Part shown: one piece after another, positions 1,181 through 58,098 of the stretch
Numbering within the stretch: position 1 is the stretch's first letter
Layout of the letters: each line of letters opens with the position of its first letter
Assembly: GCA_003173855.1 (NCBI GenBank)
Contig: PPGI01000008.1
Location: forward strand, 10,119 to 74,118
Length of the DNA: 64,000 nt
Direction of reading: 5' to 3'
Origin: Candidatus Zambryskiibacteriota bacterium
GTDB taxonomy: Bacteria > Patescibacteriota > Minisyncoccia > Phycocordibacterales > DATDWN01
Notes under the pieces: generated by a model
The model's database searches: none
What the model was told of the DNA's origin: nothing
The model's input: the letters and a program-made list of their open reading frames with translations, nothing else
Translations under genes and position numbers: made by a program

Positions 1181-1402
1181 TTAGACCATCTCAAAATCTG
1201 CAGGGTCGAGAGGCTCAGTTTCTCTCCCGACATAGAGATGAGAGACTTCTCCATTCTGCAGGTCGCATTCGTTGATCTCGATTTTTTCTCCTGATTCCTT
1301 GTTTCTCACAGTTATTGGTCTCAAGAGTTCAATACGAAAGTTTGGCTTGCCCTTAACCTTCAACAGGCCGCCGGCTTTTTTTATCAAGTCAATTTCTGTC
1401 AT
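1181..1402 (-). CDS. Hypothetical 73-aa protein inserted antisense between rpsG and fusA
   Basis: ORF with a canonical SD (GGAGG, 4 nt before ATG) and its own TTGCAA-N17-TAAAAAT promoter. No recognisable family. Confidence 0.4.
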   Translation of the reverse strand: MTEIDLIKKAGGLLKVKGKPNFRIELLRPITVRNKESGEKIEINECDLQNGEVSHLYVGRETEPLDPADFEMV

Positions 1403-1507: not shown

Positions 1508-3649
1508 ATGAATCGCGACTACACATTAGAAAAAGTCAGAAATTTCGGAATTATTGCCCATATTGATGCTGGTAAAACGACGACTTCAGAACGTGTGCTT
1601 TTTTATACTGGAATGACTCACAAAATCGGAGAAGTGCACGAAGGTGAAACTGTTACTGATTGGATGGAGCAGGAGCGAGAGCGAGGCATCACCATTACGG
1701 CTGCTGCCATTACTTGTTTTTGGAATCCGACCTATATGGCAAAGGGGGCAAAGCCAGAATACCGATTTAATATTATTGATACTCCTGGACACATCGACTT
1801 TACTGCTGAAGTAAAGAGATCACTCCGAGTTCTTGACGGTGCTGTTGTAGTTTTTGATGGAGTTGCGGGAGTTGAACCACAATCAGAAACTAACTGGCGA
1901 TATGCCGATGACGGGAATGTGCCTCGAATTTGTTTTATTAACAAACTTGATCGTACAGGAGCTTCATTTGAAAGATCATATGCTTCGATTCTCGATCGTC
2001 TTACAAAAAATGCTGTCCGAGTTCAAATTCCGATTGGCCTAGAAGACAAACACGAAGGAGTGATTGATCTTTTGAAAATGAAAGCTTTTTATTTTGAGGG
2101 AAATATGGGAATGGCAATTCGCGAAGCAGAAATTCCACCAGAACTTGTTGATGATGCTAAAAAATTCCGAGGAGAATTGATTGAAAAAATTGTCGAACAA
2201 GATGACAGCTTAATGTCTGCATATCTTGAAGGCAAGGAACCAACTTTGGATGAATTAAAAACAACCCTTCGCAAGGCAACTCTTGCAGTAAAACTTGTAC
2301 CAGTTTTTGCAGGTAGTGCTTTAAAAAATAAAGGAGTTCAGCTTGTGCTCGATGGTGTTGTTGATTATCTACCTTCTCCACTTGATATTCCTCCAGTTCA
2401 CGGTATTGATCCGAAAACAGGTGAAGAAATTTTCCGTTCTGCCTCTGACACTGAGCCTTTCTCAGCTTTGGCATTCAAACTTCAGAATGATCCATTCGTC
2501 GGACAATTAACTTTCTTTAGAGTTTATTCTGGAACAATTGAAGCAGGTACTTATGTATATAACGCAACTACAAGTGAAAAAGAACGCCTTGGACGTATTG
2601 TTAGATTGCAAGCTGACAAGCGAGAAGAAGTGAAAAAAGTTTTTGCAGGAGAAATTGCTGCCGCTGTCGGATTAAAATCAGCAAAGACATCTCACACACT
2701 TTGTGATGAAAATAATCCAATTATTTTGGATCCGATTAAATTCGTTGATCCAGTTGTCTCTCTTAGAATTGAGCCAAAAACAAAAGCCGACCAGGAAAAA
2801 ATGGGTATGGCTTTGAAAAAACTTTCTGACGAAGATCCAACTTTTAAAATTTCTTCAAACTCTGACACAGGCGAGTCAATTATTTCTGGAATGGGTGAAT
2901 TACACTTGGAAATCATGGTTGATCGAATGAAGCGCGAATTCGGCGTTGAAGTAAATGTTGGCAAACCTCAAGTTGCATATCGTGAGACAATTCTTGGAAC
3001 TGCTGATGCAGAAAATAAGTACATCAAGCAAACTGGTGGAAAAGGCCAATATGGTCACGTAAAGATTACTCTTAAGCCAATGGAAAAACTGGAGGAAGGT
3101 GCAAAAATTCCTAAAAATGTTAAACGCTATGAAGATTTTGAATTCATTGATTCGATTAAAGGAGGTGTTATTCCACAAGAATTTATTCCAGCAGTTGAAA
3201 AGGGAGTTCATGAAGCAATGGATCGTGGAATTGTGGCTGGATACAAAATGGTCAATGTTTCTTGTGAACTGACTTTCGGTTCATATCATGATGTCGACTC
3301 ATCTGAAATCGCTTACAAAATTGCAGCTTCTCAGGCTTTCCAAGATGCAGCAAAGCGAGCAAAACCTGTTATTTTAGAGCCTATTATGAAAGTTGAAGCA
3401 GTTATGCCAGAGCAATTCATGGGAGATGTTACCGGTTCACTTTCAGGAAAGCGCGGACAAATCGAAGGAATGGATGAGAGGGGAATGCTTCGCGTAATTC
3501 ATGCAAAAGTTCCGCTTTCTGAAATGTTTGGATACACAACTGATATTCGATCAATGACACAAGGACGCGGTTCGGTGATGATGGAGTTTGATCATTACGA
3601 AGTGGTGCCATCTAACGTTGAGAAGCAAATTGTAGAGTCACGGAAATAA
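1508..3649 (+). CDS. fusA: Elongation factor G
   Basis: 713 aa; GTP-binding motifs AHIDAGKTT, DTPGH, NKLD; EF-G domain order. Confidence 0.97.
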   Translation: MNRDYTLEKVRNFGIIAHIDAGKTTTSERVLFYTGMTHKIGEVHEGETVTDWMEQERERGITITAAAITCFWNPTYMAKGAKPEYRFNIIDTPGHIDFTAEVKRSLRVLDGAVVVFDGVAGVEPQSETNWRYADDGNVPRICFINKLDRTGASFERSYASILDRLTKNAVRVQIPIGLEDKHEGVIDLLKMKAFYFEGNMGMAIREAEIPPELVDDAKKFRGELIEKIVEQDDSLMSAYLEGKEPTLDELKTTLRKATLAVKLVPVFAGSALKNKGVQLVLDGVVDYLPSPLDIPPVHGIDPKTGEEIFRSASDTEPFSALAFKLQNDPFVGQLTFFRVYSGTIEAGTYVYNATTSEKERLGRIVRLQADKREEVKKVFAGEIAAAVGLKSAKTSHTLCDENNPIILDPIKFVDPVVSLRIEPKTKADQEKMGMALKKLSDEDPTFKISSNSDTGESIISGMGELHLEIMVDRMKREFGVEVNVGKPQVAYRETILGTADAENKYIKQTGGKGQYGHVKITLKPMEKLEEGAKIPKNVKRYEDFEFIDSIKGGVIPQEFIPAVEKGVHEAMDRGIVAGYKMVNVSCELTFGSYHDVDSSEIAYKIAASQAFQDAAKRAKPVILEPIMKVEAVMPEQFMGDVTGSLSGKRGQIEGMDERGMLRVIHAKVPLSEMFGYTTDIRSMTQGRGSVMMEFDHYEVVPSNVEKQIVESRK

Positions 3650-14540: not shown

Positions 14541-14918
14541 ATGGTACAACCACGTTCAATCGTTAAAATAGCTGACAACTCCGGAGGAAAAATCGGACGT
14601 GTGTTCAAGGTGCTTGGTTCATCAAAAAAGCGATATGCTTCGATTGGCGAGCTTGTGGTGATTTCAATACAAAAGGCAGAACCTCGAAAATCTACAAAGA
14701 AAAAAGATGTTGTTCGTGCAATTGTTGTCAGGCAGAAAGCTCCGTTTCGACGAAAAGATGGTTCATACATTCGATTTGATGAAAATGCAGTAGTTCTCGT
14801 AATGAAAGATGCAAAGAAAAAAGAACCTGTAGCTGGACGTGTTTTCGGCCCAATTCCTCGAGAAATTGGTGATGCTGGATATCAGAAGATTATTTCTCTT
14901 GCACCAGAGGTGGTTTAA
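14541..14918 (+). CDS. rplN: 50S ribosomal protein L14
   Basis: 125 aa; L14-like. Confidence 0.95.
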   Translation: MVQPRSIVKIADNSGGKIGRVFKVLGSSKKRYASIGELVVISIQKAEPRKSTKKKDVVRAIVVRQKAPFRRKDGSYIRFDENAVVLVMKDAKKKEPVAGRVFGPIPREIGDAGYQKIISLAPEVV

Positions 14919-14927
14919 AACAAAAAC

Positions 14928-15149
14928 ATGCACGTAAAAAAAGACGACAAAGTAATAGTTTTAACAGGAAAAGACAAGGGCAAAACTGGTACAGTGGTTA
15001 AAGCATTTCCAAAAATAAACAAGGTAATTGTTTCTGGCGTAAATATTTTAAAAACTCATCAAAAGCCACGACGCGGAGGAGAGAAGGGTCAAATAATTGA
15101 TAAAACAATGCCGATTCACGCTTCCAACGTAAGAAAGACTGGAAAATAA
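14928..15149 (+). CDS. rplX: 50S ribosomal protein L24
   Basis: 73 aa; KOW motif; position. Confidence 0.9.
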
Positions 15150-28058: not shown

Positions 28059-28068
28059 TTTGTATTTG

Positions 28069-28451
28069 TGGAGATGGTGGTATCGAAACCACGTCCATAT
28101 ATAGAATTGAAACGAATCTACAGTGCTTAGGATATTTAATTGTTTAAAACACAAAGCTTAGAACAGCCAAAATACTTTGTATTCGAGTTCCTATTTTTCG
28201 GAAGTTTCCGGAACAAGGAACTTCTATAACCTCAATTTATATCAATCAACTTCTCGTATGAGATATGAGAGAAGCGACCGTCCCTTAGGCTAAAGCGTAA
28301 GAGAAAGTATAGGCTCCGTAAGGAGAAACTACACCCTTAGACAAGTTTTTTACACTTAATCTTTCCAAACCGTTTTAGGAGAATTTGGTGCTCCGCATTG
28401 CACGTATCAATGTCGAATATATGTCAAAACCTGTCATCCCCGCTCTTTGTA
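28069..28451 (-). ncRNA. ssrA: tmRNA (ssrA), ~383 nt
   Basis: 5' GGGGAUG pairs with 3' CAUCUCC, including the G3:U70 pair that marks alanine charging. tRNA-like T-arm (GUGG-UUUCGAUA-CCAC); discriminator A; CCA not encoded. Internal tag reading frame GCC UAU ACU UUC UCU UAC GCU UUA GCC UAA (AYTFSYALA*) at 28285..28314. Adjacent to smpB. Confidence 0.75.
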
Positions 28452-29220: not shown

Positions 29221-29433
29221 ATGGACCGAAAGTCGATCTCGATCATGAAAGCGTGCGAGTTGGTGGGCGTTTCTCGGCGGACGATTTACAACTGGCTCTC
29301 GAGTGGCAAGATCGAGTACGTTCGGACTGCTGGGGGGTCGGTACGAATCTTCGTCGACTCGTTGTGGCGCGATCCGCATAAGGTCGATCGGCCAGCAGTT
29401 CAGACTGTCTTGCAGGCTGAAGGGCGGAGCTAG
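29221..29433 (+). CDS. Excisionase-family helix-turn-helix DNA-binding protein, GC-rich (~58% GC)
   Basis: ELVGVSRRTIYNWLSSGKIEY is an Xis/MerR-type HTH. GGGAGG SD. Local GC far above the genome background. Confidence 0.65.
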   Translation: MDRKSISIMKACELVGVSRRTIYNWLSSGKIEYVRTAGGSVRIFVDSLWRDPHKVDRPAVQTVLQAEGRS

Positions 29434-29467: not shown

Positions 29468-29491
29468 TAAGGGGCGGCTTAACCGCCCCTT
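29468..29491 (+). terminator. Terminator hairpin (ggggcggcttaaccgcccc + TTT)
   Basis: GC stem plus T tail after the xis-like gene. Confidence 0.55.
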
Positions 29492-29555: not shown

Positions 29556-31502
29556 ATGGCATTACCTGAAAACAAAGACAAAAAGAAGATCATAATAAAG
29601 AAGTCTTCCAATGGAAACAGCAAAGGACCGAAAGAAAGTTCTATAATGAACTACATTCTATCGATCCTTCTCGTTTTTATTGTTATTTCAACTATTTATT
29701 CTTTTGTTTCAAATACTACGAGCAAGAAAACTCCAGAAATTCCACTTTCAACTCTTGCTCAAGATATAAAAGGTGGAGCTGTTAAAGAAATTACCGTAAA
29801 TGGAGATGATTTAAACGTTGAATATAAAACTGGTGACAAGAAAAATTCTAGGAAAGAAGATGCAGTGGCTCTATCACAATCTCTTGATAATTTGGGAGTG
29901 AGCAAAGAACAATTAAGCCAAATAGGCATTAATATTCAAAATCAAAATGGACTTGGTTACTGGTTGCTAAATCTTGCTCCAATTATTTTCCCAATATTAT
30001 TTATTTTGATTTTTGTTTGGTTTCTATCTCGTCAAGTTAAAGGTGCAGGAATTCAAGCATTAACTTTTGGTCAATCGAAAGCACGAATGATTGATCCAAA
30101 TGACAAAAGTCAGAGAGTAACATTTAAAGATGTCGCAGGAGCAAAAGAAGCAAAAGAAGAACTGCTTGAAATTGTTGATTTCCTCCGAAATCCGAAAAAA
30201 TTTCTTGATATTGGTGCTAGGATTCCAAAAGGAATTCTCTTAATGGGTGCACCTGGAACTGGAAAAACTTTGCTCGCACGAGCAGTAGCTGGGGAAGCGG
30301 GAGTAGCATTCTTTTCAATTTCTGGATCAGAATTCGTAGAAATGTTCGTCGGTGTCGGTGCTTCACGTGTAAGAGATTTATTTTTAATGGCCAAGAAAAA
30401 CGCACCAGCAATTATTTTCGTAGATGAGATTGATGCTGTCGGACGTGTCCGAGGAGTTGGTGCTGGTGGTGGAAACGATGAACGAGAGCAAACACTGAAT
30501 CAGATTCTAGTTGAAATGGATGGATTTGAACCAAACGAAAAAGTAATTGTCATGGCTGCAACAAACAGACCAGATGTTCTTGATCCAGCTCTGCTTCGAC
30601 CAGGACGATTTGATCGACGAGTGACTCTTGATTTGCCGGACAGGCGAGACAGAGAAGAAATTTTGCGAGTTCACAGTGGTAAAAAACCATTTGCCGAAGA
30701 TGTTAATCTAAAAGTTATCGCCGAAAGAACGCCAGGTTTTTCCGGAGCTGATCTTTATTCTTTAATGAACGAAGGAGCAATTTTAGCAGCGCGAGAAAAT
30801 AGAACAAAAATTTCTCAATTCGATTTGATTCGTTCGATTGAAAAAGTAATGCTTGGTCCTGAACGACGCAGTCATATTTTGTCGAAAAAAGAAAAAGAAA
30901 TTACTGCATATCACGAAGCAGGTCATGCGGTACTTGCTTCACTTCTCCCATATGCTGATCCAGTGCACAAAATTTCAATCATAGCTCGCGGTCGTGCTGC
31001 AGGTTATGTTTTAAAACTTCCACTTGAAGATACAAAACTCCAATCACGAAAAGAGTTTCTTGATGATATTGCAGTGTCTCTTGGAGGATATGTTACAGAA
31101 AAAATGCTTTTTGATGATTTAACTACTGGTCCATCAAATGATTTGCAAGTTTCGACTGCTCTTGCTCGGGATATGGTTACAAAATACGGAATGTCTGATT
31201 CTGTTGGTCCAATTGCTCTTGAAGGAGCAGGTGGAAAGGTTTTATTTGGAAGGGGAGTTGAAGAACAAGGTTTTTCAGAAAAAGTTGCTTCAGATATTGA
31301 TGCAGAAGTTTCGCGTATTATGAAAGAAGCACTTGAGAAAGCAAAGAAAGTCATTACTGAAAATAGAAAACTTCTTGATGCAATTGCAAAACGACTGATG
31401 GAAGTAGAAACAATTGAACGTGCAGAATTTGAAAATATTTTAATTACTCACGGAGTTAGCCCAAAACAAAAAATGGATATTGAGCATCAACCATTAGTTT
31501 GA
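29556..31502 (+). CDS. ftsH: ATP-dependent zinc metalloprotease FtsH
   Basis: N-terminal transmembrane region; AAA Walker A/B ([16 protein letters not shown]); HEAGHA zinc motif; TGA stop. Confidence 0.96.
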
Positions 31503-31545
31503 CACCAATTTTATTTCTGGTACTATTTTTTGTGGAGGTGTAAGA

Positions 31546-31758
31546 GTGAGTTCTCCTGAACGTACAATTACAAGACAAATGGCGCTGATTTTTGTCGAGC
31601 AGATGAGACACGAAGTTTCAATGCTCGGTGACACCCAGTGTGCCGTGGACATTAACAATGTTCTCGAACTGCTTCGTCGAGGAGCGTACCCTCCCGATGT
31701 CGCTCACTTTCTGGTGACAATGATGAGGAATGGAGCAAAACTTCAAACCTCAATGTAA
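31546..31758 (+). CDS. Hypothetical 70-aa protein in a GC-rich islet (GTG start)
   Basis: GGAGG SD; GC ~50%; followed by a GC hairpin terminator at 31775..31797. Confidence 0.35.
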   Translation: MSSPERTITRQMALIFVEQMRHEVSMLGDTQCAVDINNVLELLRRGAYPPDVAHFLVTMMRNGAKLQTSM

Positions 31759-31807
31759 GCAGTGTTCACGCAAAAGGCCGGCAACCCGCCGGCCTTTCCT
31801 ATACATG

Positions 31808-31881
31808 TCCGCCTGCTTGGACTCGAACCAAGGACCCCAGAGGTATAAGCTCTGTGCTCTAACCAACTGAGCTACAGGCGG
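31808..31881 (-). tRNA. tRNA with anticodon UAU (predicted Ile, AUA-reading)
   Basis: Canonical cloverleaf: acceptor CCGCCUG/CAGGCGG; D-arm GCUC-AGUUGGUUA-GAGC; anticodon stem CAGAG/CUCUG with loop CUUAUAC; T-arm CUUGG-UUCGAGU-CCAAG; discriminator A; CCA not encoded. Confidence 0.75.
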
Positions 31882-31977
31882 AAAACATATTTAAAATTAA
31901 CACATTTTGATAAATAAAAAAACTTCTATTGACAAATATAATTTAAATACTATTGTAATGGCGGAAGGAGTTTTCTG

Positions 31978-32322
31978 ATGGCTGAGAATTTACCGAAGGA
32001 TATGTCGAGAATAGTTTTGCGGATCTCGACAGAGAAGGACAATCCACAAAAGCTTCGCAATGTCGAATTTCGGATCGATCCGAAAAACGACGATGCTATT
32101 CGAATCCTTGATCGTGACTTGCACGATGTTTTCTCGGTCACAGTTCGAAAGACATGGACCAATATGCCAGAGAGGATGGTTCAAAGTTATGCGAACGAAG
32201 CGTTAATCGATGCTGTCATTCGGGCATTCTATGCTGTACTGGTTGCGGGTCCACTTACACCAGTACAAGAGAAAGCAATCCATCGTGCTGTTCCTGATCT
32301 CGTCATCACTCTACCCAAGTAG
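31978..32322 (+). CDS. Hypothetical 114-aa protein in the GC-rich islet
   Basis: TTGACA promoter and AAGGAG SD upstream; own hairpin terminator. Confidence 0.4.
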   Translation: MAENLPKDMSRIVLRISTEKDNPQKLRNVEFRIDPKNDDAIRILDRDLHDVFSVTVRKTWTNMPERMVQSYANEALIDAVIRAFYAVLVAGPLTPVQEKAIHRAVPDLVITLPK

Positions 32323-32409
32323 TCCACAAGAAAAAGTTCTCAAGACTTCTTGTGGACTTTTTCATTGACATAGAAATTTCGGGTGATATCTTTAAATCTC
32401 GGAGGTTCT

Positions 32410-32607
32410 ATGAATTCAGATGAGAACCGAACGACTACGTTTGGTCAAGTTCCAGTTGGCGGTGAGTTCTATGGTGAGGGGACAGACACCAAATTCAAAA
32501 AGGAATCCTACAACGAGTGTATTGTTGTTGAGGGTCCGGGAAAAGGACGGACGTTTCCAGTGTACGATCCTGGATGGATCGTCGAACCGGCAATTATTGA
32601 GTTGTAG
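32410..32607 (+). CDS. Hypothetical 65-aa protein (the ORF track starts at 32383; the SD-supported ATG is at 32410)
   Basis: GGAGG SD 4 nt before the ATG; terminator hairpin at 32612..32636. Confidence 0.35.
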   Translation: MNSDENRTTTFGQVPVGGEFYGEGTDTKFKKESYNECIVVEGPGKGRTFPVYDPGWIVEPAIIEL

Positions 32608-32693
32608 TTAGCTGAGGGGCCCGCATGTGCGGGCTCTTTACATAATTATGAATTTGACTATAGTAATTTTAGAAACATTAGATAGGAGGTCCG

Positions 32694-33026
32694 ATGACAC
32701 CAGGTGCAGCTCGTTTCTCGAAGAGCATCATGGCTATAAGCCAAAGCCTCAAGTCCGGAGTTCCGAGTGACGCTGAGCTCTCTCGGCTTCTCAGAGAAAC
32801 AGGAGCGGTGGTAAACGAGAAATCCAAAACCATTCTCCTCAATACTTTATTCGACATACGGGGACGTGAGAACCGTCTTGCGACAATCAACATTGTTGCA
32901 AGGTGCTTCAAGAGTCTAACCAAACCTGTTCCCGCTGAGCCTGAGAGAATGGCCGACATCGATTACGACGATTTCACAGAAATCGATCCGACTGCAGTGG
33001 AAGTTCCAACAGGCGAGTGGCGATAA
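32694..33026 (+). CDS. Hypothetical 110-aa acidic protein in the GC-rich islet
   Basis: AGGAGG SD; terminator hairpin at 33033..33057. Confidence 0.4.
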   Translation: MTPGAARFSKSIMAISQSLKSGVPSDAELSRLLRETGAVVNEKSKTILLNTLFDIRGRENRLATINIVARCFKSLTKPVPAEPERMADIDYDDFTEIDPTAVEVPTGEWR

Positions 33027-33068
33027 ACAAAAGGGAGCAGGTAATCTGCTCCCTTTGTTCTATATTTT

Positions 33069-35243
33069 TTATTCAAAATGGATTTTGTTATTTTTATTTT
33101 GCAAAGCTTCTTTTAATTTTGGATAATTTTTTAATTCTGGATCTTCATCTAGTATTCGCATAGCTTCAGTCCGACTGGCTTCAACCATTTTTATATTTTT
33201 AATTCCTTCCATAGCCAAGTCGGAGAGTCCCCATTGTTTTCTCCCATACAATTCTCCCGCTCCGCGTTGTTCTAAATCAAATTCAGCTAATTCGAATCCA
33301 TTTTTGGCGGTAGTCAGGGCTTTCAGGCGATCGCGAGTTTTTTGGCCTTGGCTTTCGGCAAATACGTAACAATATGCTTGATGATTTGATCTGATAACTC
33401 GTCCGCGAAGCTGATGAAGTTGAGACAATCCAAATCGTTCAGCCCCCTCGATAATAATCATTGTTGCGTTAGGAACATTGACTCCGACTTCAACAACAGA
33501 TGTTGCTACGAGAATTTTTGTTTCTCCATGTGAAAATTTATCCATCACTTTTTCTTTTTCCTGCGGAGTCATTTTGGAATGCAAAATATCTATAGTGAAT
33601 TCAGAAAAAACTTCCTTTTTAAGTCGTTCTGCTTCGAGAGTTACAGATTTTGCAATAACTGCTAATTCTTTTGTTGGGTCAGGTTCATCAATTCTCGGAC
33701 AAATAACATAAAGTTGTCTTCCGGTTCGCAATTCTTTTTTAATTTCCTCGTAGGTTTGTGCTCGAGCTTGCGGCAAAATTATTTTTGTAATAATCGGTTT
33801 TCGTCCATGTGGCATCTGATCAAGTAAAGTGAGATCAAGATCGCCATAAATTGTAAGCGAAAGCGTTCGAGGAATAGGAGTGGCTGTCATCGAAAGTAAA
33901 TGAGGAGTCAATTCGTTTTTAGTAAGTAATTTTTGTCTCTGTAGAGTTCCAAAACGATGTTGTTCATCAATCACTACATAAGCCAAATGTTTAAAAGCTA
34001 CAGTTTTTTGAATAAGTGTATGAGTACCAATTAGTATTGGCACTTCACCATTTGAAACCCAATTCAATAATTGTGCGCGAGAAATTTTTGTTGGTTTGGT
34101 TGCATCAGTTTTTGATGGAAAAATTTTACATTCACTTCCGGTAATTAGTCCAATTTTTATTGGTAGGTGATTAAAATAGGAAATAAAGTTTTCATAATGC
34201 TGCTTTGCAAGAATTTCTGTTGGGCACATGTATGCAGTCTGGAGATTTCCATAATCTTTTCCATCAGGTCGTGCCATAGTTACAGCATAAATTGTAGTTG
34301 CCGCTACGGCAGTTTTTCCTGAACCGACATCTCCTTCCAATAGGCGAGACATTGGATAACCTCGGCGAAAATCTGAAACGATTGCTTCTATTGCTTTTTT
34401 TTGCGAATCTGTAGCTTTAAATGGAAATCTTTTAATAAAATCAGAGATATCTTTTGTACTTGTTTTAATATTGAATGCACTTTTATCTTGCCAAGTTATT
34501 TTGTTTTTCTGCTTTTCAAGCTGAATAAAAAATATTTCTTGGAAAGCAAATCGTTTTCTTGCTGAAAGTGCATCGCGATCATTTTTTGGTGTATGGATCC
34601 AAATTAAAGCTGTTCGAATATTTGGCAGAGAATATTTTTTTAAAATTTCTTCTGGAATAGGATCAACTATATTTTCAATTATACCCATGCGAAAAATATC
34701 TTGGATTTTATGAAATATCCAATTTGAAGTAATGCCTTTGGTTTCTGCGTACACTGGATAGAGAATATGATCATCTGATCCCTTTCCAAACAGTTCTCCA
34801 GTATCAGGAATTTGATCAATGGCTTCAATTTTCGGATTGCTCATGTAAAGTTCACCTTTGCGCTCTGTGACTTTTCCTTCGGCTCTCACTAATTGTCCTT
34901 CTCGAATCATTTTGGCAATGTATGGTTGATTGAACCAGACGAGTTTGATTTTGCCGGTCTCGTCCGAAATAAATCCATCAGACATTGGTATTTTTTTTAC
35001 CCAAGCTTTCGAAGTTTTAAGTCCAGAAACTTTTCCAAAAATAGTTACTTGATCTCCTTTAACTAATCCTTCGATCCGCTTTACTTGATTAGGATCTCCG
35101 TATCGAAAAGGGAAGTAGTAGAGCAAATCCTCAATTGTCACTAAACCAAGTTTTCCTAGTGCTTTTTTTTGAAATTCACTGAGTCGGAATGTTTCAGAAA
35201 GTTTAGAGTCTAACTGCATGTCGCTAGTGTAGCATGTGTTCAT
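33069..35243 (-). CDS. recG: ATP-dependent DNA helicase RecG
   Basis: 724 aa; wedge domain plus helicase motifs (GDVGSGKT, DEQHRFG). Confidence 0.93.
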   Translation of the reverse strand: MNTCYTSDMQLDSKLSETFRLSEFQKKALGKLGLVTIEDLLYYFPFRYGDPNQVKRIEGLVKGDQVTIFGKVSGLKTSKAWVKKIPMSDGFISDETGKIKLVWFNQPYIAKMIREGQLVRAEGKVTERKGELYMSNPKIEAIDQIPDTGELFGKGSDDHILYPVYAETKGITSNWIFHKIQDIFRMGIIENIVDPIPEEILKKYSLPNIRTALIWIHTPKNDRDALSARKRFAFQEIFFIQLEKQKNKITWQDKSAFNIKTSTKDISDFIKRFPFKATDSQKKAIEAIVSDFRRGYPMSRLLEGDVGSGKTAVAATTIYAVTMARPDGKDYGNLQTAYMCPTEILAKQHYENFISYFNHLPIKIGLITGSECKIFPSKTDATKPTKISRAQLLNWVSNGEVPILIGTHTLIQKTVAFKHLAYVVIDEQHRFGTLQRQKLLTKNELTPHLLSMTATPIPRTLSLTIYGDLDLTLLDQMPHGRKPIITKIILPQARAQTYEEIKKELRTGRQLYVICPRIDEPDPTKELAVIAKSVTLEAERLKKEVFSEFTIDILHSKMTPQEKEKVMDKFSHGETKILVATSVVEVGVNVPNATMIIIEGAERFGLSQLHQLRGRVIRSNHQAYCYVFAESQGQKTRDRLKALTTAKNGFELAEFDLEQRGAGELYGRKQWGLSDLAMEGIKNIKMVEASRTEAMRILDEDPELKNYPKLKEALQNKNNKIHFE

Positions 35244-35313: not shown

Positions 35314-36306
35314 TTACTTTGTTGCGTGCACCTTCGGTCGGTTGGTGAAAGATGGATCGGCATCGATCGCGTTGCCCGACGGATTGTACACCGTTGGGCA
35401 ACTGTAGTTCGTGATTTTGTTCGTGATCATCTTGTCGTTGTTGCCTTGATCGGAGATTGCCGCAACATACGAGGTGTTGTAGCAATAGTCGTTTGTGATG
35501 GTGTTGTTCACGACTTTGTTGTTCGTCTGGTCGTCTGGAGCACTGATGCAGTCAGCAGCCACATTGGACAGATACGCTCCCACATCATTGTTTTTGAGCG
35601 TGTTCTGAACAATCTGAACCCCAGATACGAGAGCGCTTCCATAACAAGCTCCTCCAACTACCAGAATTCCGCCTGAAGCGGAACCATCACCGGGAAATCC
35701 GATGTAGGAATTTCCGCTTACAGTGTTTCTCATGACGGACGCTGATGCGGCGAAACCAACTTGGATGCCGTTCTGGGCAATGTAGTTTACATGCCCCTGA
35801 CCGATGACGTTGTTGTCGCTTACCGTTACCTGGGAAGCTGGACCGTTCACCACGACCCCGCCTTTTTGGTAATTGTAAATCGTGTTTCCGGAAACTTTTC
35901 CAGTCACGGCGCTCGTGTCCGAGAAACCACGGTAGTAGATGCCCACACCATGCTGGGTACCATTCAATGGCACTTCGCCGATGTCATGAATCGAGCTCGT
36001 CAAAACGTCAACCGAGACGATTCCAGCGTCGCCGTTCACTAGCACACCGAAATAGTTCGATCCGAAGATGTTTGCCGATTTCACCGTGCCGCCGACGCCT
36101 GCTGCGTCGTAGTAGATCGCCACGTTGCAGCCGGTCGAGTCGACATTTCCCGACACCGTGCCGACAGGATTGATAAGAGCCGCGGTCATGTTGATCGAGT
36201 CTCTGAAGAAACCAGTTGGCATGCAAGTTGCCGCCTTGATCGAAACCTCCTTGATGGAAGTTCCCATGAGAACAATTGCCAGTGCGAACACAAACCTTTT
36301 CATCAC
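35314..36306 (-). CDS. Secreted right-handed parallel beta-helix (pectate-lyase-fold) protein, GC-rich (~55%)
   Basis: Signal peptide; repetitive G/N/V/T-rich ~22-aa turns typical of beta-helix; GAGGAG SD; GC far above background. Confidence 0.55.
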   Translation of the reverse strand: MMKRFVFALAIVLMGTSIKEVSIKAATCMPTGFFRDSINMTAALINPVGTVSGNVDSTGCNVAIYYDAAGVGGTVKSANIFGSNYFGVLVNGDAGIVSVDVLTSSIHDIGEVPLNGTQHGVGIYYRGFSDTSAVTGKVSGNTIYNYQKGGVVVNGPASQVTVSDNNVIGQGHVNYIAQNGIQVGFAASASVMRNTVSGNSYIGFPGDGSASGGILVVGGACYGSALVSGVQIVQNTLKNNDVGAYLSNVAADCISAPDDQTNNKVVNNTITNDYCYNTSYVAAISDQGNNDKMITNKITNYSCPTVYNPSGNAIDADPSFTNRPKVHATK

Positions 36307-36377: not shown

Positions 36378-36707
36378 TTGTCAATGTGTAGAACTTGTGT
36401 TAAAAATATGATTATGAAATGGATAAAAAATAATTGGATCAAGCTCCTAGCAGTTCTAAGTTTGGCTGGAGCAATATGGGGCAATTTCCCATATGTTTAT
36501 TATCAACTAATGAATTGGATAGTTGTCGGTGCAGCAATTGTTACAGCAATGCAAGCATCACGCAAAAATAATATTGCAGTAATGTGGTTCTTTCTTTTTG
36601 TAGCAGTTATATTTAATCCTGTTGCTCCACTTTATTTAGATCAGAATGTTTGGAGAACAGTCGATATGGTTACAGGTTTAGTTTTTCTTCTCGCTTTGTT
36701 TGTCTAA
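36378..36707 (+). CDS. Small membrane protein (3 transmembrane segments), hypothetical
   Basis: Hydrophobic ORF followed by the bidirectional terminator at 36721..36746. Confidence 0.4.
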   Translation: MSMCRTCVKNMIMKWIKNNWIKLLAVLSLAGAIWGNFPYVYYQLMNWIVVGAAIVTAMQASRKNNIAVMWFFLFVAVIFNPVAPLYLDQNVWRTVDMVTGLVFLLALFV

Positions 36708-36756: not shown

Positions 36757-38143
36757 TTAATATTGAGAACTCCACTGTGCGGTTAGATTTCCAATACCAT
36801 TGTCGGCTACAACTTTAATTGAGATTATATCTCCTGCACTAAATGCAACATTGTGTGTTACATCTGAACAAGAACTTGCTCCGCTAGTGATTGTACACGT
36901 TACAGGCTGACTTACGCCATTTTTATCAACAGTGAACACGATATTTTTACCAGAGCCGCCGACATTAGAACTCAATCTCACAAAGAAGTTCTTTATTGTT
37001 CCTGCAACTGGCATTGCTACTTGCTCTGAGCTTTCAGTTGTTGAATTACTTCCAACAAATGTGCCCATGTATGTTGTAGCATTAGCTTGAACGCTTGCAC
37101 CACTGCCTCCACCTATAAATGAGATTCCGTTAGTTCCATTTATACCTGGGTTACCTTGTATTCCTTGGATACCCTGTATACCTTGAGAACCAGTGTCACC
37201 CTTATCTCCCTTTACACCCTGAATACCTTGGATGCCCTGTATTCCTTGATCTCCTTTATCACCCTTTGGACCAATAAGTGATGTTAACCATTGAGTTACA
37301 GTGCCACCAAAACTATTATCAACAGCAACTTGGTAAGCACTTTTTCCATCAACACCAGTGTCTCCTTTGTCTCCTTTATCACCCTTATCACCTTGAATTC
37401 CTTGTATTCCTTGATCTCCTTTGTCTCCTTTTAAGCCTTGTGGACCTTGAGAACCAGTATCACCTTTATCTCCCTTTGGACCTTGTGGACCAGTATCGCC
37501 GGTATCTCCCTTCAAACCTTGTGGGCCTGGTACACCTTGAATACCTTGTTCTCCTTTTTCACCTTGTTGACCAGTTTCTCCTTGGATTCCTTGCTCACCT
37601 TGAGCACCAGTCTCTCCTTTTTCACCCTGAACTCCTTGAATACCCTGATCTCCTTTGTCACCTTTATCTCCCTTTGGACCTTGGATTCCTTGTTGACCTT
37701 GTGGACCAGCAGGACCTATTGGACCTACATCACCTTGAGCACCTATAGGACCAGCAGCTCCCGTATCTCCTTTAGGACCTTGATCTCCGGTATCACCCTT
37801 GTCTCCTTTTTCTCCATTAGTTCCGTTTGTTCCAGGATCCCCCTTTGGACCTTGTGGACCAACTGAACCTTGTATACCTTGTGGACCTTGAGCACCAGTC
37901 TCTCCTTTAGGACCCGCAGGGCCTGTGTCACCAGTATCACCCTTTGGACCGGTTGCTCCATCAGCACCATTTTGACCAGCAGGACCGATTGGACCTTGGA
38001 TTCCTTGAATTCCTTGTGGGCCAGCAGGACCTTGAATATTTCCTACATCTTGGAAGTGAGTTAAATCAGTACATACATATAAATGTCCACCAATTAAATA
38101 TCCATCACCAATATTACATGATGAAGGTAGAAGGGAGTATCAT
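36757..38143 (-). pseudogene. Collagen-like (GxY)n protein, C-terminal segment: ~110 GxY triplets, a phage tail-fibre/BclA-like SAYQVAVDNSFGGTVTQWLTSL motif, and a C-terminal globular domain. The frame is open from 38143 with no ATG; it continues the 38094..38627 ORF after a frameshift
   Basis: In-frame GxY repeats traced by eye from 38041 to ~37100. The ORF-track entry 36757..37515 merely starts at an internal TTG. Confidence 0.6.
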
Positions 38144-38627
38144 CAAATGATCCGAGAATTTTTACACTTGTTCCAGCTTCTCCTTTTTCTCCTTGTGGAC
38201 CTTGTGGACCAGCAGGGCCTTGAGCACCTGTTGCACCAGGAGCACCATCAGCACCAGCCGGACCGGTTGAGCCTGTATCTCCTTTATCTCCTTTTGAACC
38301 TTGTATTCCTTGAGCACCTATTGAACCAGCAGGACCTGTGGCACCAGTATTACCAGTGTCACCCTTGTCTCCTTTTTCTCCTTGTGGACCGATAGGACCG
38401 ATTGGACCTTGTGGGCCGATAGGACCAGGAACTCCTTGAATTCCTTGTGGACCTTGTGGACCTGCAGGACCTTGTGGACCAACTGTTGAACCGACACTAA
38501 TAAAAGTATTTCCTGAACCAGTACACTGTGAGGCAGAACTTACAACCGTCACTTTTCCGTTCGGACTTGAAACACAAAGATTAATTGTTGTAGCAGATGC
38601 ATTTGCAAGTGGAATTAATGCAAACAA
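38094..38627 (-). CDS. Collagen-like protein, N-terminal segment (signal peptide + N-domain + ~40 GxY triplets), ending prematurely after a frame change
   Basis: [12 protein letters not shown] signal-like; [16 protein letters not shown]... repeats. The ORF ends in the non-collagen tail ...[24 protein letters not shown], while the GxY frame resumes downstream in another frame. Confidence 0.6.
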
Positions 38628-54049: not shown

Positions 54050-54103
54050 ATGAAATCCTTTCCGAAAGTACTGTATACCTGACTTTTTATTTGGTCAAAA
54101 TTG

Positions 54104-54192
54104 CGGAGACGGATGGATTCGAACCATCGGTGCCTTTTAAGGGGCACACCTCTTTAGCAAAGAGGCACGTTAGACCACTCCGACACGTCTCC
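54104..54192 (-). tRNA. tRNA-Ser (anticodon GCU), type II with a long variable arm
   Basis: Acceptor GGAGACG/CGUCUCC; anticodon stem CCUCU/AGAGG with loop UUGCUAA; 20-nt variable arm; T-arm GAUGG-UUCGAAU-CCAUC; discriminator G. Confidence 0.8.
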
Positions 54193-57837: not shown

Positions 57838-58098
57838 TTGGAATGGTACTATCAAGTCCGGAGGCATTCTATGGAGACCAATGAAATTAAGACTCCAGTA
57901 CCAGAGGAAACAATCTGGGAAGCCACAGATCTCTGCGAAATTGGTGGGCGACAACAGGAGCCGTCAGTGAAAAAAGAAGTTACCGATTATGATGAAACCC
58001 CTCCCTCAAGATGGGTTGGGATCGTTCTCGGAACGACTATCATTTCTTTTATCGTCTTAGGCACACGCTACGCATTTTTTAAAGGTTGGATCAGCTGA
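57838..58098 (+). CDS. Hypothetical 86-aa protein with a C-terminal transmembrane segment
   Basis: ORF followed by the terminator at 58113..58141; TGA stop. Confidence 0.35.
   Translation: MEWYYQVRRHSMETNEIKTPVPEETIWEATDLCEIGGRQQEPSVKKEVTDYDETPPSRWVGIVLGTTIISFIVLGTRYAFFKGWIS

Follow-up and report, generated by a model that had tools for sequence, protein, structure and literature searches.

Probable turnover of small, moron-like genes around a native-looking tRNA-Ile(UAU) gene in a Patescibacteria genome

Introduction

Morons of lambdoid phages are autonomous units, each composed of a promoter, an open reading frame (ORF), and a terminator, that are inserted between phage genes. On chromosomes, hotspots of horizontal gene transfer (HGT) adjoin tRNA or transfer-messenger RNA (tmRNA) genes and are bounded by core genes. 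Here we analyze a 1.5-kb block that lies between ftsH and recG in the genome of a Candidatus Zambryskiibacteriota bacterium and is reminiscent of both. The block holds a tRNA gene with the anticodon UAU and four short ORFs (ORF1–ORF4). It is part of a 64,000-nucleotide stretch of contig PPGI01000008.1 (assembly GCA_003173855.1), hereafter the window, whose coordinates are used throughout. A preliminary description of the block, made without database searches, likened it to a moron or cargo cluster, or to a compact defense or anti-defense cassette brought in with a tRNA.

Similar to phage morons, the four ORFs are short and unrelated, carry their own promoter, ribosome-binding site, and terminator, and deviate in composition from their surroundings. 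In contrast to morons, they lie outside a prophage, between syntenic bacterial core genes, and phage relatives were found only for a neighboring helix-turn-helix (HTH) gene. The resemblance to HGT hotspots lies in the core flanks, comprising recG, the tRNA gene, ftsH, smpB, and the tmRNA gene, which surround variable content of atypical composition. The locus differs from such hotspots in its scale of one to four tiny genes, in the lack of an integrase, an attachment-site (att) repeat, or a recognizable mobile element, and in a tRNA gene whose orientation flips. Of the features by which tRNA-integrated genomic islands or prophage remnants are recognized, atypical composition and absence from relatives were observed, whereas an integrase and an att repeat were not.

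The tRNA gene has a separate set of described counterparts. tRNA-Ile(UAU) is rare in bacteria, with nine species known in 2013 (PMC3575796), and a tRNA-Ile2 with the UAU anticodon occurs in TilS-less bacteria including Mycoplasma mobile, Bifidobacterium, and Neorickettsia, among others (Taniguchi et al. 2013, PMC3575796). As in these bacteria, the tRNA-Ile of the window is chromosomal, its UAU anticodon is genomically encoded, and the genome's own genes use AUA codons. Unlike in these species, the gene is conserved at a fixed chromosomal position over a class-level lineage of the Candidate Phyla Radiation (CPR). Taken as a whole, the locus is probably a small and ordinary gene-turnover hotspot around a native tRNA gene. 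Orphan-gene islets beside tRNA genes are common, and the islet as originally flagged matters little in itself.

The tRNA-Ile(UAU) gene

The tRNA gene occupies positions 31807–31881 of the minus strand. ARAGORN assigns it as tRNA-Ile with the anticodon UAU, in agreement with the preliminary description, and it scores 69.8 bits with the Rfam tRNA model. The cloverleaf is perfect, and its anticodon loop reads CUUAUAC. A73, C4-G69, U12-A23, and A37, which are identity elements of E. coli tRNA-Ile, are all readable in the sequence. Relative to the E. coli identity set, the 29-41 pair is G-C instead of C-G, and position 38 is C instead of A.

The locus was compared with 80 related loci, 69 of which are of the Paceibacteria type and encode RecG proteins 52–79% identical to that of the window. 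RecG identity places the genome with the Parcubacteria/Zambryskibacteria-like Patescibacteria of the CPR, the best relatives sharing 75–79%. In 57 of the 69 Paceibacteria-type loci the tRNA-Ile(UAU) gene adjoins recG, and most of the other 12 stop soon after recG. Wherever both genes were captured, the order runs from recG through the tRNA gene to ftsH, which converges with recG, and on to smpB and the tmRNA gene. This position is fixed across Zambryskibacteria-, Taylorbacteria-, and Kaiserbacteria-type genomes (loci L001–L069). An alignment of 18 orthologues revealed compensatory changes in 16 of the 21 stem pairs and no broken pair, and the tRNA sequence diverges in step with the relatives' genomes. 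The 43-nt core common to the window and seven relatives was found on no IMG/VR viral contig.

Codon usage points in the same direction. AUA accounts for 90 of 597 isoleucine codons (15%; 13.2 per 1000 codons) in 14 host genes, while it accounts for three of 24 in ORF1–ORF4, where AUC is preferred. Synteny, orthology, and the use of AUA by the host as against its rarity in the islet indicate that the tRNA serves the host and not the islet. On sequence evidence, tRNA-Ile(UAU) appears to be a native, vertically inherited core gene rather than mobile cargo, through which the cell most likely decodes its AUA codons.

These data bear directly on the proposal that the whole 1.5-kb block, including the tRNA, is a single mobile cargo islet that carries its own tRNA-Ile(UAU) for the expression of AT-rich genes. 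The rarity of this tRNA in bacteria and the distinct composition of the block speak for such an islet. They are outweighed by the clade-wide synteny and orthology of the tRNA gene, by the failure to find its core on a viral contig in IMG/VR, and by the fact that the tRNA gene and the ORFs, each with its own signals, are encoded on opposite strands. A single element that spread recently among the relatives is likewise at odds with the compensatory divergence of the tRNA. Furthermore, since the ORFs are GC-richer than the host and poor in AUA, the notion of a tRNA that helps AT-rich cargo is reversed. We consider a shared cargo origin of tRNA and ORFs exceedingly unlikely, and the role suggested in the preliminary description for the tRNA, as phage or mobile cargo, has to be given up. 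That description had also named universal presence of the islet in related genomes as evidence against its reading; on this point the two components part, the tRNA being present throughout and the ORFs not.

The orientation of the tRNA gene relative to recG varies among loci L001–L060. It is opposite in L001–L005 and L008–L015, and the same in the window, L006, L017, L022, L026, L027, and L031. Such flips would imply repeated local inversion or re-insertion.

Anatomy of the four ORFs

The four ORFs all lie on the plus strand and encode proteins of 70, 114, 65, and 110 amino acids with no similarity to each other or to known families, so that the lengths and the unrelatedness given in the preliminary description stand. 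ORF1 (31546–31758) encodes an orphan protein of 70 amino acids from a GTG start codon preceded by the Shine-Dalgarno (SD) sequence GGAGGTG, and its GC content at third codon positions (GC3) is 0.45. The promoter-like site of ORF1 (31499–31526, plus strand) comprises TTGACA, a 16-nt spacer, and TACTAT with an extended TG, and its -35 box shares bases with the stop codon of ftsH. A GC hairpin (31773–31797; -19.9 kcal/mol, z -3.8) with a T-run on the minus strand separates the convergent ORF1 and tRNA genes and probably terminates both.

ORF2 (31978–32322) encodes an orphan protein of 114 amino acids, with the SD sequence AAGGAG and a GC3 of 0.45. Its promoter-like site (31929–31956, plus strand; TTGACA, 16 nt, TATTGT) stands back to back with the upstream region of the tRNA gene, and its predicted terminator hairpin (32321–32358, plus strand; -17.7 kcal/mol, z -3.9) is followed by TTTTT. 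ORF3 (32410–32607) encodes an acidic orphan protein of 65 amino acids (pI 4.4), with the SD sequence GGAGG and a GC3 of 0.47; it is preceded by a promoter-like site (32365–32392, plus strand) consisting of TTGACA, 16 nt, and TATCTT with an extended TG, and followed by a putative terminator hairpin (32613–32640, plus strand; -24 kcal/mol, z -6.5). ORF4 (32694–33026) encodes 110 amino acids, comprising a predicted four-helix domain and an acidic, aromatic tail, with the SD sequence AGGAGGT and a GC3 of 0.50. Its promoter-like site (32637–32664, plus strand) reads TTTACA, 16 nt, TATAGT. A bidirectional hairpin terminator (33030–33056; z -5.8), seen on both strands, is common to the convergent ORF4 and recG genes.

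The signals are thus of the same kind in all four units. GGAGG or AGGAG lies 4–7 nt ahead of each start codon, and the top four sigma-70-like matches in the region from 28.9 to 33.3 kb (10 of 12 positions, 16-nt spacer) are those directly upstream of ORF1–ORF4. The hairpin 3' of each ORF folds better than 200 of 200 shuffled sequences (z -3.8 to -6.5). The promoters and terminators are predictions obtained by consensus matching and folding only. Within this framework, the strong SD sequences, promoters, and dedicated hairpin terminators claimed in the preliminary description were all recovered.

A further possibility is that the ORFs are not genes but GC-rich non-coding remnants or structured RNAs with open frames arising by chance. 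The lack of homologues and the poor AlphaFold model of ORF2 (predicted local distance difference test score, pLDDT, of 49, which makes it unusable) are compatible with this view. Against it, each ORF has a promoter-like site, an SD sequence, a well-spaced start codon, and a terminator just past the stop codon, and ORF4 is conserved at the protein level. The order GC1 > GC3 > GC2 holds in each of the four ORFs, which makes them look like real coding sequences, and no match to an Rfam family was obtained even at E ≤ 1. Chance open frames therefore seem highly improbable, and the correctly placed signals, the coding GC pattern, and the protein-level homologue of ORF4 lead us to treat all four as what appear to be real genes. 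Searches with Rfam also ruled out known structured RNAs in the GC-rich spacers of the window and of the relatives. Integron cassettes seem unlikely as well, as the hairpins, judged by eye only, read as short stem-loops with a T-rich stretch within a few bases, as is typical of terminators, and look unlike attC sites.

Composition and Shine-Dalgarno contrast

The block as a whole has a GC content of 45.5%, compared with a window mean of 38.2%, which corresponds to the 98th percentile among windows of equal size. The estimate of about 48–50% in the preliminary description is too high for the entire block; the ORFs alone have 46–50%, and the elevation above the background is confirmed. The third codon positions deviate more strongly, with GC3 values of 0.45–0.50 in ORF1–ORF4 against 0.20–0.24 in ftsH and recG and 0.26 ± 0.07 in 38 long host ORFs. 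GC3 is the clearer signal of foreign composition than block GC. Synonymous codon usage is different across the board; among glutamate codons, for instance, the share of GAG is 63% in the islet ORFs and 19% in host genes.

A second contrast concerns translation initiation. A 5-mer SD sequence precedes all five GC-rich units (ORF1–ORF4 and the HTH gene described below), compared with 6 of 45 long host ORFs when every candidate start within the initial fifth of the ORF is considered; in 35 of the 45, no SD sequence lies near such a start. The probability of five out of five arising by chance is about 2e-4 (hypergeometric). Besides composition, and independently of it, the SD contrast sets these units apart from the host genes. 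A strong SD sequence on acquired genes, mostly absent from host genes, would offer a simple marker of foreign genes in these genomes, and one may ask how a single reduced ribosome initiates both kinds of mRNA.

Homology searches with ORF1–ORF4

None of the four proteins matches a family in Pfam or NCBIfam. PADLOC returned only a match to ORF2 at E 0.049, which was counted as noise, and PHROGs yielded sub-threshold matches only, to ORF1 (E 0.026) and ORF3 (E 0.14). Among 5.8 billion proteins, ORF1 has no homologue and ORF2 matches itself alone, while ORF3 and ORF4 form singleton clusters. A HMMER pass with ORF4 over 1.84 billion representatives recovered ORF4 itself and repeat-protein noise; the TPR and LRR repeat-protein matches were rejected as chance, their scores being summed from weak repeat matches. 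In collections of 50,697 phage records and 72,556 plasmid records, tBLASTn searches with ORF1–ORF4 were empty, and scans of viral contigs with ORF1, ORF2, ORF3, and the ORF4 family revealed no relative. Metagenomes scanned with the alignment of ORF4 and with the tRNA pattern gave no match either and hence yielded no relative at the strain level.

Structure prediction was attempted for ORF2 and ORF4, following a check proposed in the preliminary description. The ORF4 model (pLDDT 67.7) shows a four-helix domain for which Foldseek found nothing below E 0.7 in the PDB and BFVD, so that neither structure nor family searches provided a match.

In the 80 related loci, tBLASTn and phmmer detected no counterpart of ORF1–ORF4 except for a homologue of ORF4 in L013. 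The L013 protein has 106 amino acids, shares 32% identity and conserved motifs with ORF4, and is encoded directly downstream of recG. Its gene is likewise GC-rich and built in the manner of ORF4, with a promoter-like site, an SD sequence, and a hairpin. The RecG proteins of the two loci are 73% identical.

A fifth unit and its phage relatives

The preliminary description stated that there are no integrase or structural phage genes. The absence of an integrase is borne out; the statement has to be qualified, as an HTH gene of the excisionase family that has close homologues in phages lies 2 kb away, beyond ftsH. This gene (29221–29433, plus strand) is situated between smpB and ftsH and encodes 70 amino acids, with a GC3 of 0.72, the SD sequence GGGAGGTG, and a putative hairpin terminator at 29469–29491. 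The protein matches TIGR01764 at 41.1 bits, above the curated cut-off of 28.8, as well as Pfam HTH_17. In this it resembles excisionase-family proteins, from whose norm it departs in being encoded by a solitary gene between ftsH and smpB without a partner integrase.

The HTH protein is 83%, 79%, and 68% identical to proteins on three IMG/VR phage contigs (L081–L083) with GC contents of 55–66%. On the first of these (L081, 55% GC), the HTH gene follows the gene of the large terminase subunit, and a portal gene is found a few kilobases further on. In view of this arrangement, its role even there may be in regulation or packaging rather than in excision. A copy in the same ftsH-smpB spacer of L006 is 71% identical. 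PADLOC gave only a generic mad1 match for the HTH gene.

The ftsH-smpB spacer of L031 (about 14587–15106) harbors an 84-amino-acid ORF with a GC3 of 0.55 that matches phrog_6053 (function unknown) at E 3e-22. Together with the phage identity of the HTH protein, this match suggests that at least two small spacer genes come from phage gene pools. A phage origin of ORF1–ORF4 themselves can be suggested only by analogy with the HTH gene.

Variable spacers among relatives

The spacers on the two sides of the tRNA gene differ widely in length between relatives, with 4–6350 bp toward recG and 54–4787 bp toward ftsH; the minimal state, exemplified by L035 and L067, is about 100 bp for each. The ftsH-smpB spacer measures 58–120 bp in most relatives and 340–820 bp in about ten. 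In several close relatives the spacers lie 5–15 GC points above their own genome, as in L009, L010, and L005.

Individual spacers hold small genes of various kinds. The recG-tRNA spacer of L014 (7824–10015) is a 2.2-kb stretch of 49% GC in a genome of 42% GC, with SD-bearing orphan ORFs of 92, 115, and 144 amino acids that have no Pfam or PHROG match; it corresponds to the islet of the window but differs in content. Cys-rich, zinc-ribbon-like ORFs with SD sequences occupy the tRNA-ftsH spacer in L002 (6779–7045), L009 (2753–2950), L010 (6451–6678), L011 (12219–12449), and L015 (14326–14535). Most of them exceed their genomes in GC content, and none has an above-threshold family match. A conserved membrane protein of about 85 amino acids, marked by the motif KLWFKAKxYGWGWYP and a pair of hydrophobic helices, is encoded in the tRNA-ftsH spacer of nine relatives, L004, L005, L006, L008, L014, L015, L021, L023, and L060. 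It occurs nowhere in the 64-kb window, where ORF1 occupies its place.

Origin of the small genes

The foreign codon composition of ORF1–ORF4, their own signals, their absence from relatives, the variable site, and the nearby phage-derived HTH gene support the reading that they are recently acquired, moron-like accessory genes. The picture of a cargo cluster brought in with a tRNA is reasonable for the ORFs, which look foreign and specific to this genome, but not for the tRNA, which appears native.

The following mechanism may be envisaged. Around a conserved block of recG, tRNA-Ile(UAU), ftsH, smpB, and the tmRNA gene, the tRNA-side and ftsH-smpB spacers would gain and lose small foreign genes. 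In the window these spacers appear to hold five autonomous units, in each of which a short ORF of elevated GC content is equipped with a sigma-70-like promoter, a strong SD sequence, and a hairpin terminator. We infer horizontal acquisition of ORF1–ORF4, the probable source being phage or other mobile DNA of Patescibacteria with a somewhat higher GC content; they would have entered as single-gene fragments captured by illegitimate or flank-mediated recombination. Captured genes, with a promoter and a terminator that they either carried along or gained, would turn over quickly and be expressed as independent moron-like genes. They may persist because insertions with their own terminators between convergent or divergent core genes would be harmless. 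The role of ORF1–ORF4 would most likely be accessory, in conflict between phage and host or between host and symbiont.

Several observations weigh against recent acquisition. No donor, integrase, att repeat, or partial tRNA copy was found: neither half of the tRNA has a second copy at up to three mismatches in the 64 kb, and flanking direct repeats are absent. Site-specific integration at the tRNA gene is consequently not supported. ORF1–ORF4 have no phage or plasmid homologue. The homologues of ORF4 in L013 and of the HTH gene in L006 stand at the same positions and could mean old residency with repeated loss. In addition, the closest relatives share only 75–79% RecG identity, so that "recent" cannot be dated.

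The alternative suggested by these homologues is that the small ORFs are old, vertically inherited residents that evolve fast and are repeatedly lost, with GC content and SD sequences kept by selection, for example for mRNA stability or expression. In its favor, both homologues are GC-rich and share the promoter-SD-hairpin build. However, ORF1–ORF3 lack a homologue in any search, and the 32% identity of ORF4 to its L013 homologue contrasts with 73% for RecG. The HTH gene shares more identity with phage genes (83%) than with its copy in L006 (71%), and a GC3 twice the host level would fade without unusual selection. Moreover, short spacers or other content are the rule at this site among the closest relatives. 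Old residency is, in our judgment, unlikely.

The four proteins have also been suggested to form a compact defense or anti-defense cassette against phages, a view that is compatible with horizontal acquisition. Anti-defense genes are often organized as small, independent orphans near a phage-type HTH gene, and ORF1–ORF4 are small, unrelated, and presumably independently expressed orphans in such a neighborhood; ORF3 is acidic, and the tail of ORF4 is acidic and aromatic. Nevertheless, no PADLOC model applies to ORF1–ORF4, and the HTH gene has only its generic match. Four separate transcription units are not expected of a single multi-component system, and the ORFs co-occur in no other genome. 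A cassette of this kind is quite improbable as an explanation of the islet.

Returning to acquisition around a native tRNA gene, a broader combined reading can be formulated, in which a Paceibacteria-type lineage of class level has exchanged lysidine-dependent AUA decoding for an encoded tRNA-Ile(UAU), and the spacers beside the gene, as well as those around ftsH, smpB, and the tmRNA gene, serve as a dedicated, integrase-free capture site for single phage-derived orphan genes, which would arrive as ready-made promoter-SD-ORF-terminator units in a genome whose own genes are for the most part devoid of SD sequences. We regard this reading as tentative and rather doubtful. Within the 64-kb window, a small part of the genome, neither an SGGxDS PP-loop motif nor a CAU tRNA was detected, and no paper linking the UAU anticodon, tilS, or lysidine to CPR/Patescibacteria was found in the library searched. 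An isoleucyl-tRNA synthetase (IleRS) adapted to the UAU anticodon, either with Arg at the position of residue 865 in M. mobile or of the eukaryote type, would be expected for such decoding; the window holds no IleRS gene. If the reading were true, Paceibacteria-type Parcubacteria would far exceed in size any other bacterial clade in which an encoded tRNA-Ile(UAU) replaces lysidine decoding. If tilS is truly absent, a large uncultured clade would depend on a rare U34-type mode of AUA decoding that has so far been studied in a handful of species.

Neighboring genes and other features of the window

Both core genes that border the islet were verified with Pfam, as the preliminary description had placed them. 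ftsH (29556–31502, plus strand) carries the M41 and AAA domains and is syntenic in relatives, and recG (33069–35243, minus strand) carries the RecG_wedge, DEAD, and Helicase_C domains. The smpB gene, its product likewise assigned by Pfam, and the tmRNA gene (28068–28441, minus strand) lie upstream of ftsH. ARAGORN found three RNA genes in the window, namely the tmRNA gene, tRNA-Ile(UAU), and tRNA-Ser(GCU) at 54103–54192 on the minus strand.

Two further singletons share the build of the islet units. The first, an ORF of 73 amino acids (1181–1402, minus strand) with a GC3 of 0.49, the SD sequence GGAGG, a hairpin terminator, and no Pfam match, lies antisense between rpsG (653–1120) and fusA (1508–3649), inside the str operon. 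The second (57871–58098, plus strand) encodes 75 amino acids with a C-terminal hydrophobic helix, has a promoter-like site of TTGACG, 16 nt, and TACTAT, an SD sequence, and a terminator, and is also devoid of a Pfam match.

Beyond recG, a 330-amino-acid protein with a hydrophobic N-terminus and a weak right-handed beta-helix match is encoded at 35314–36306 on the minus strand. It is a singleton with no relative in the 80 loci, and no other long ORF of the window deviates as far in GC3 (0.62). The gene is followed by those of a DUF6804 protein (36378–36707) and of collagen-repeat proteins (36757–37515 and 38094–38627).

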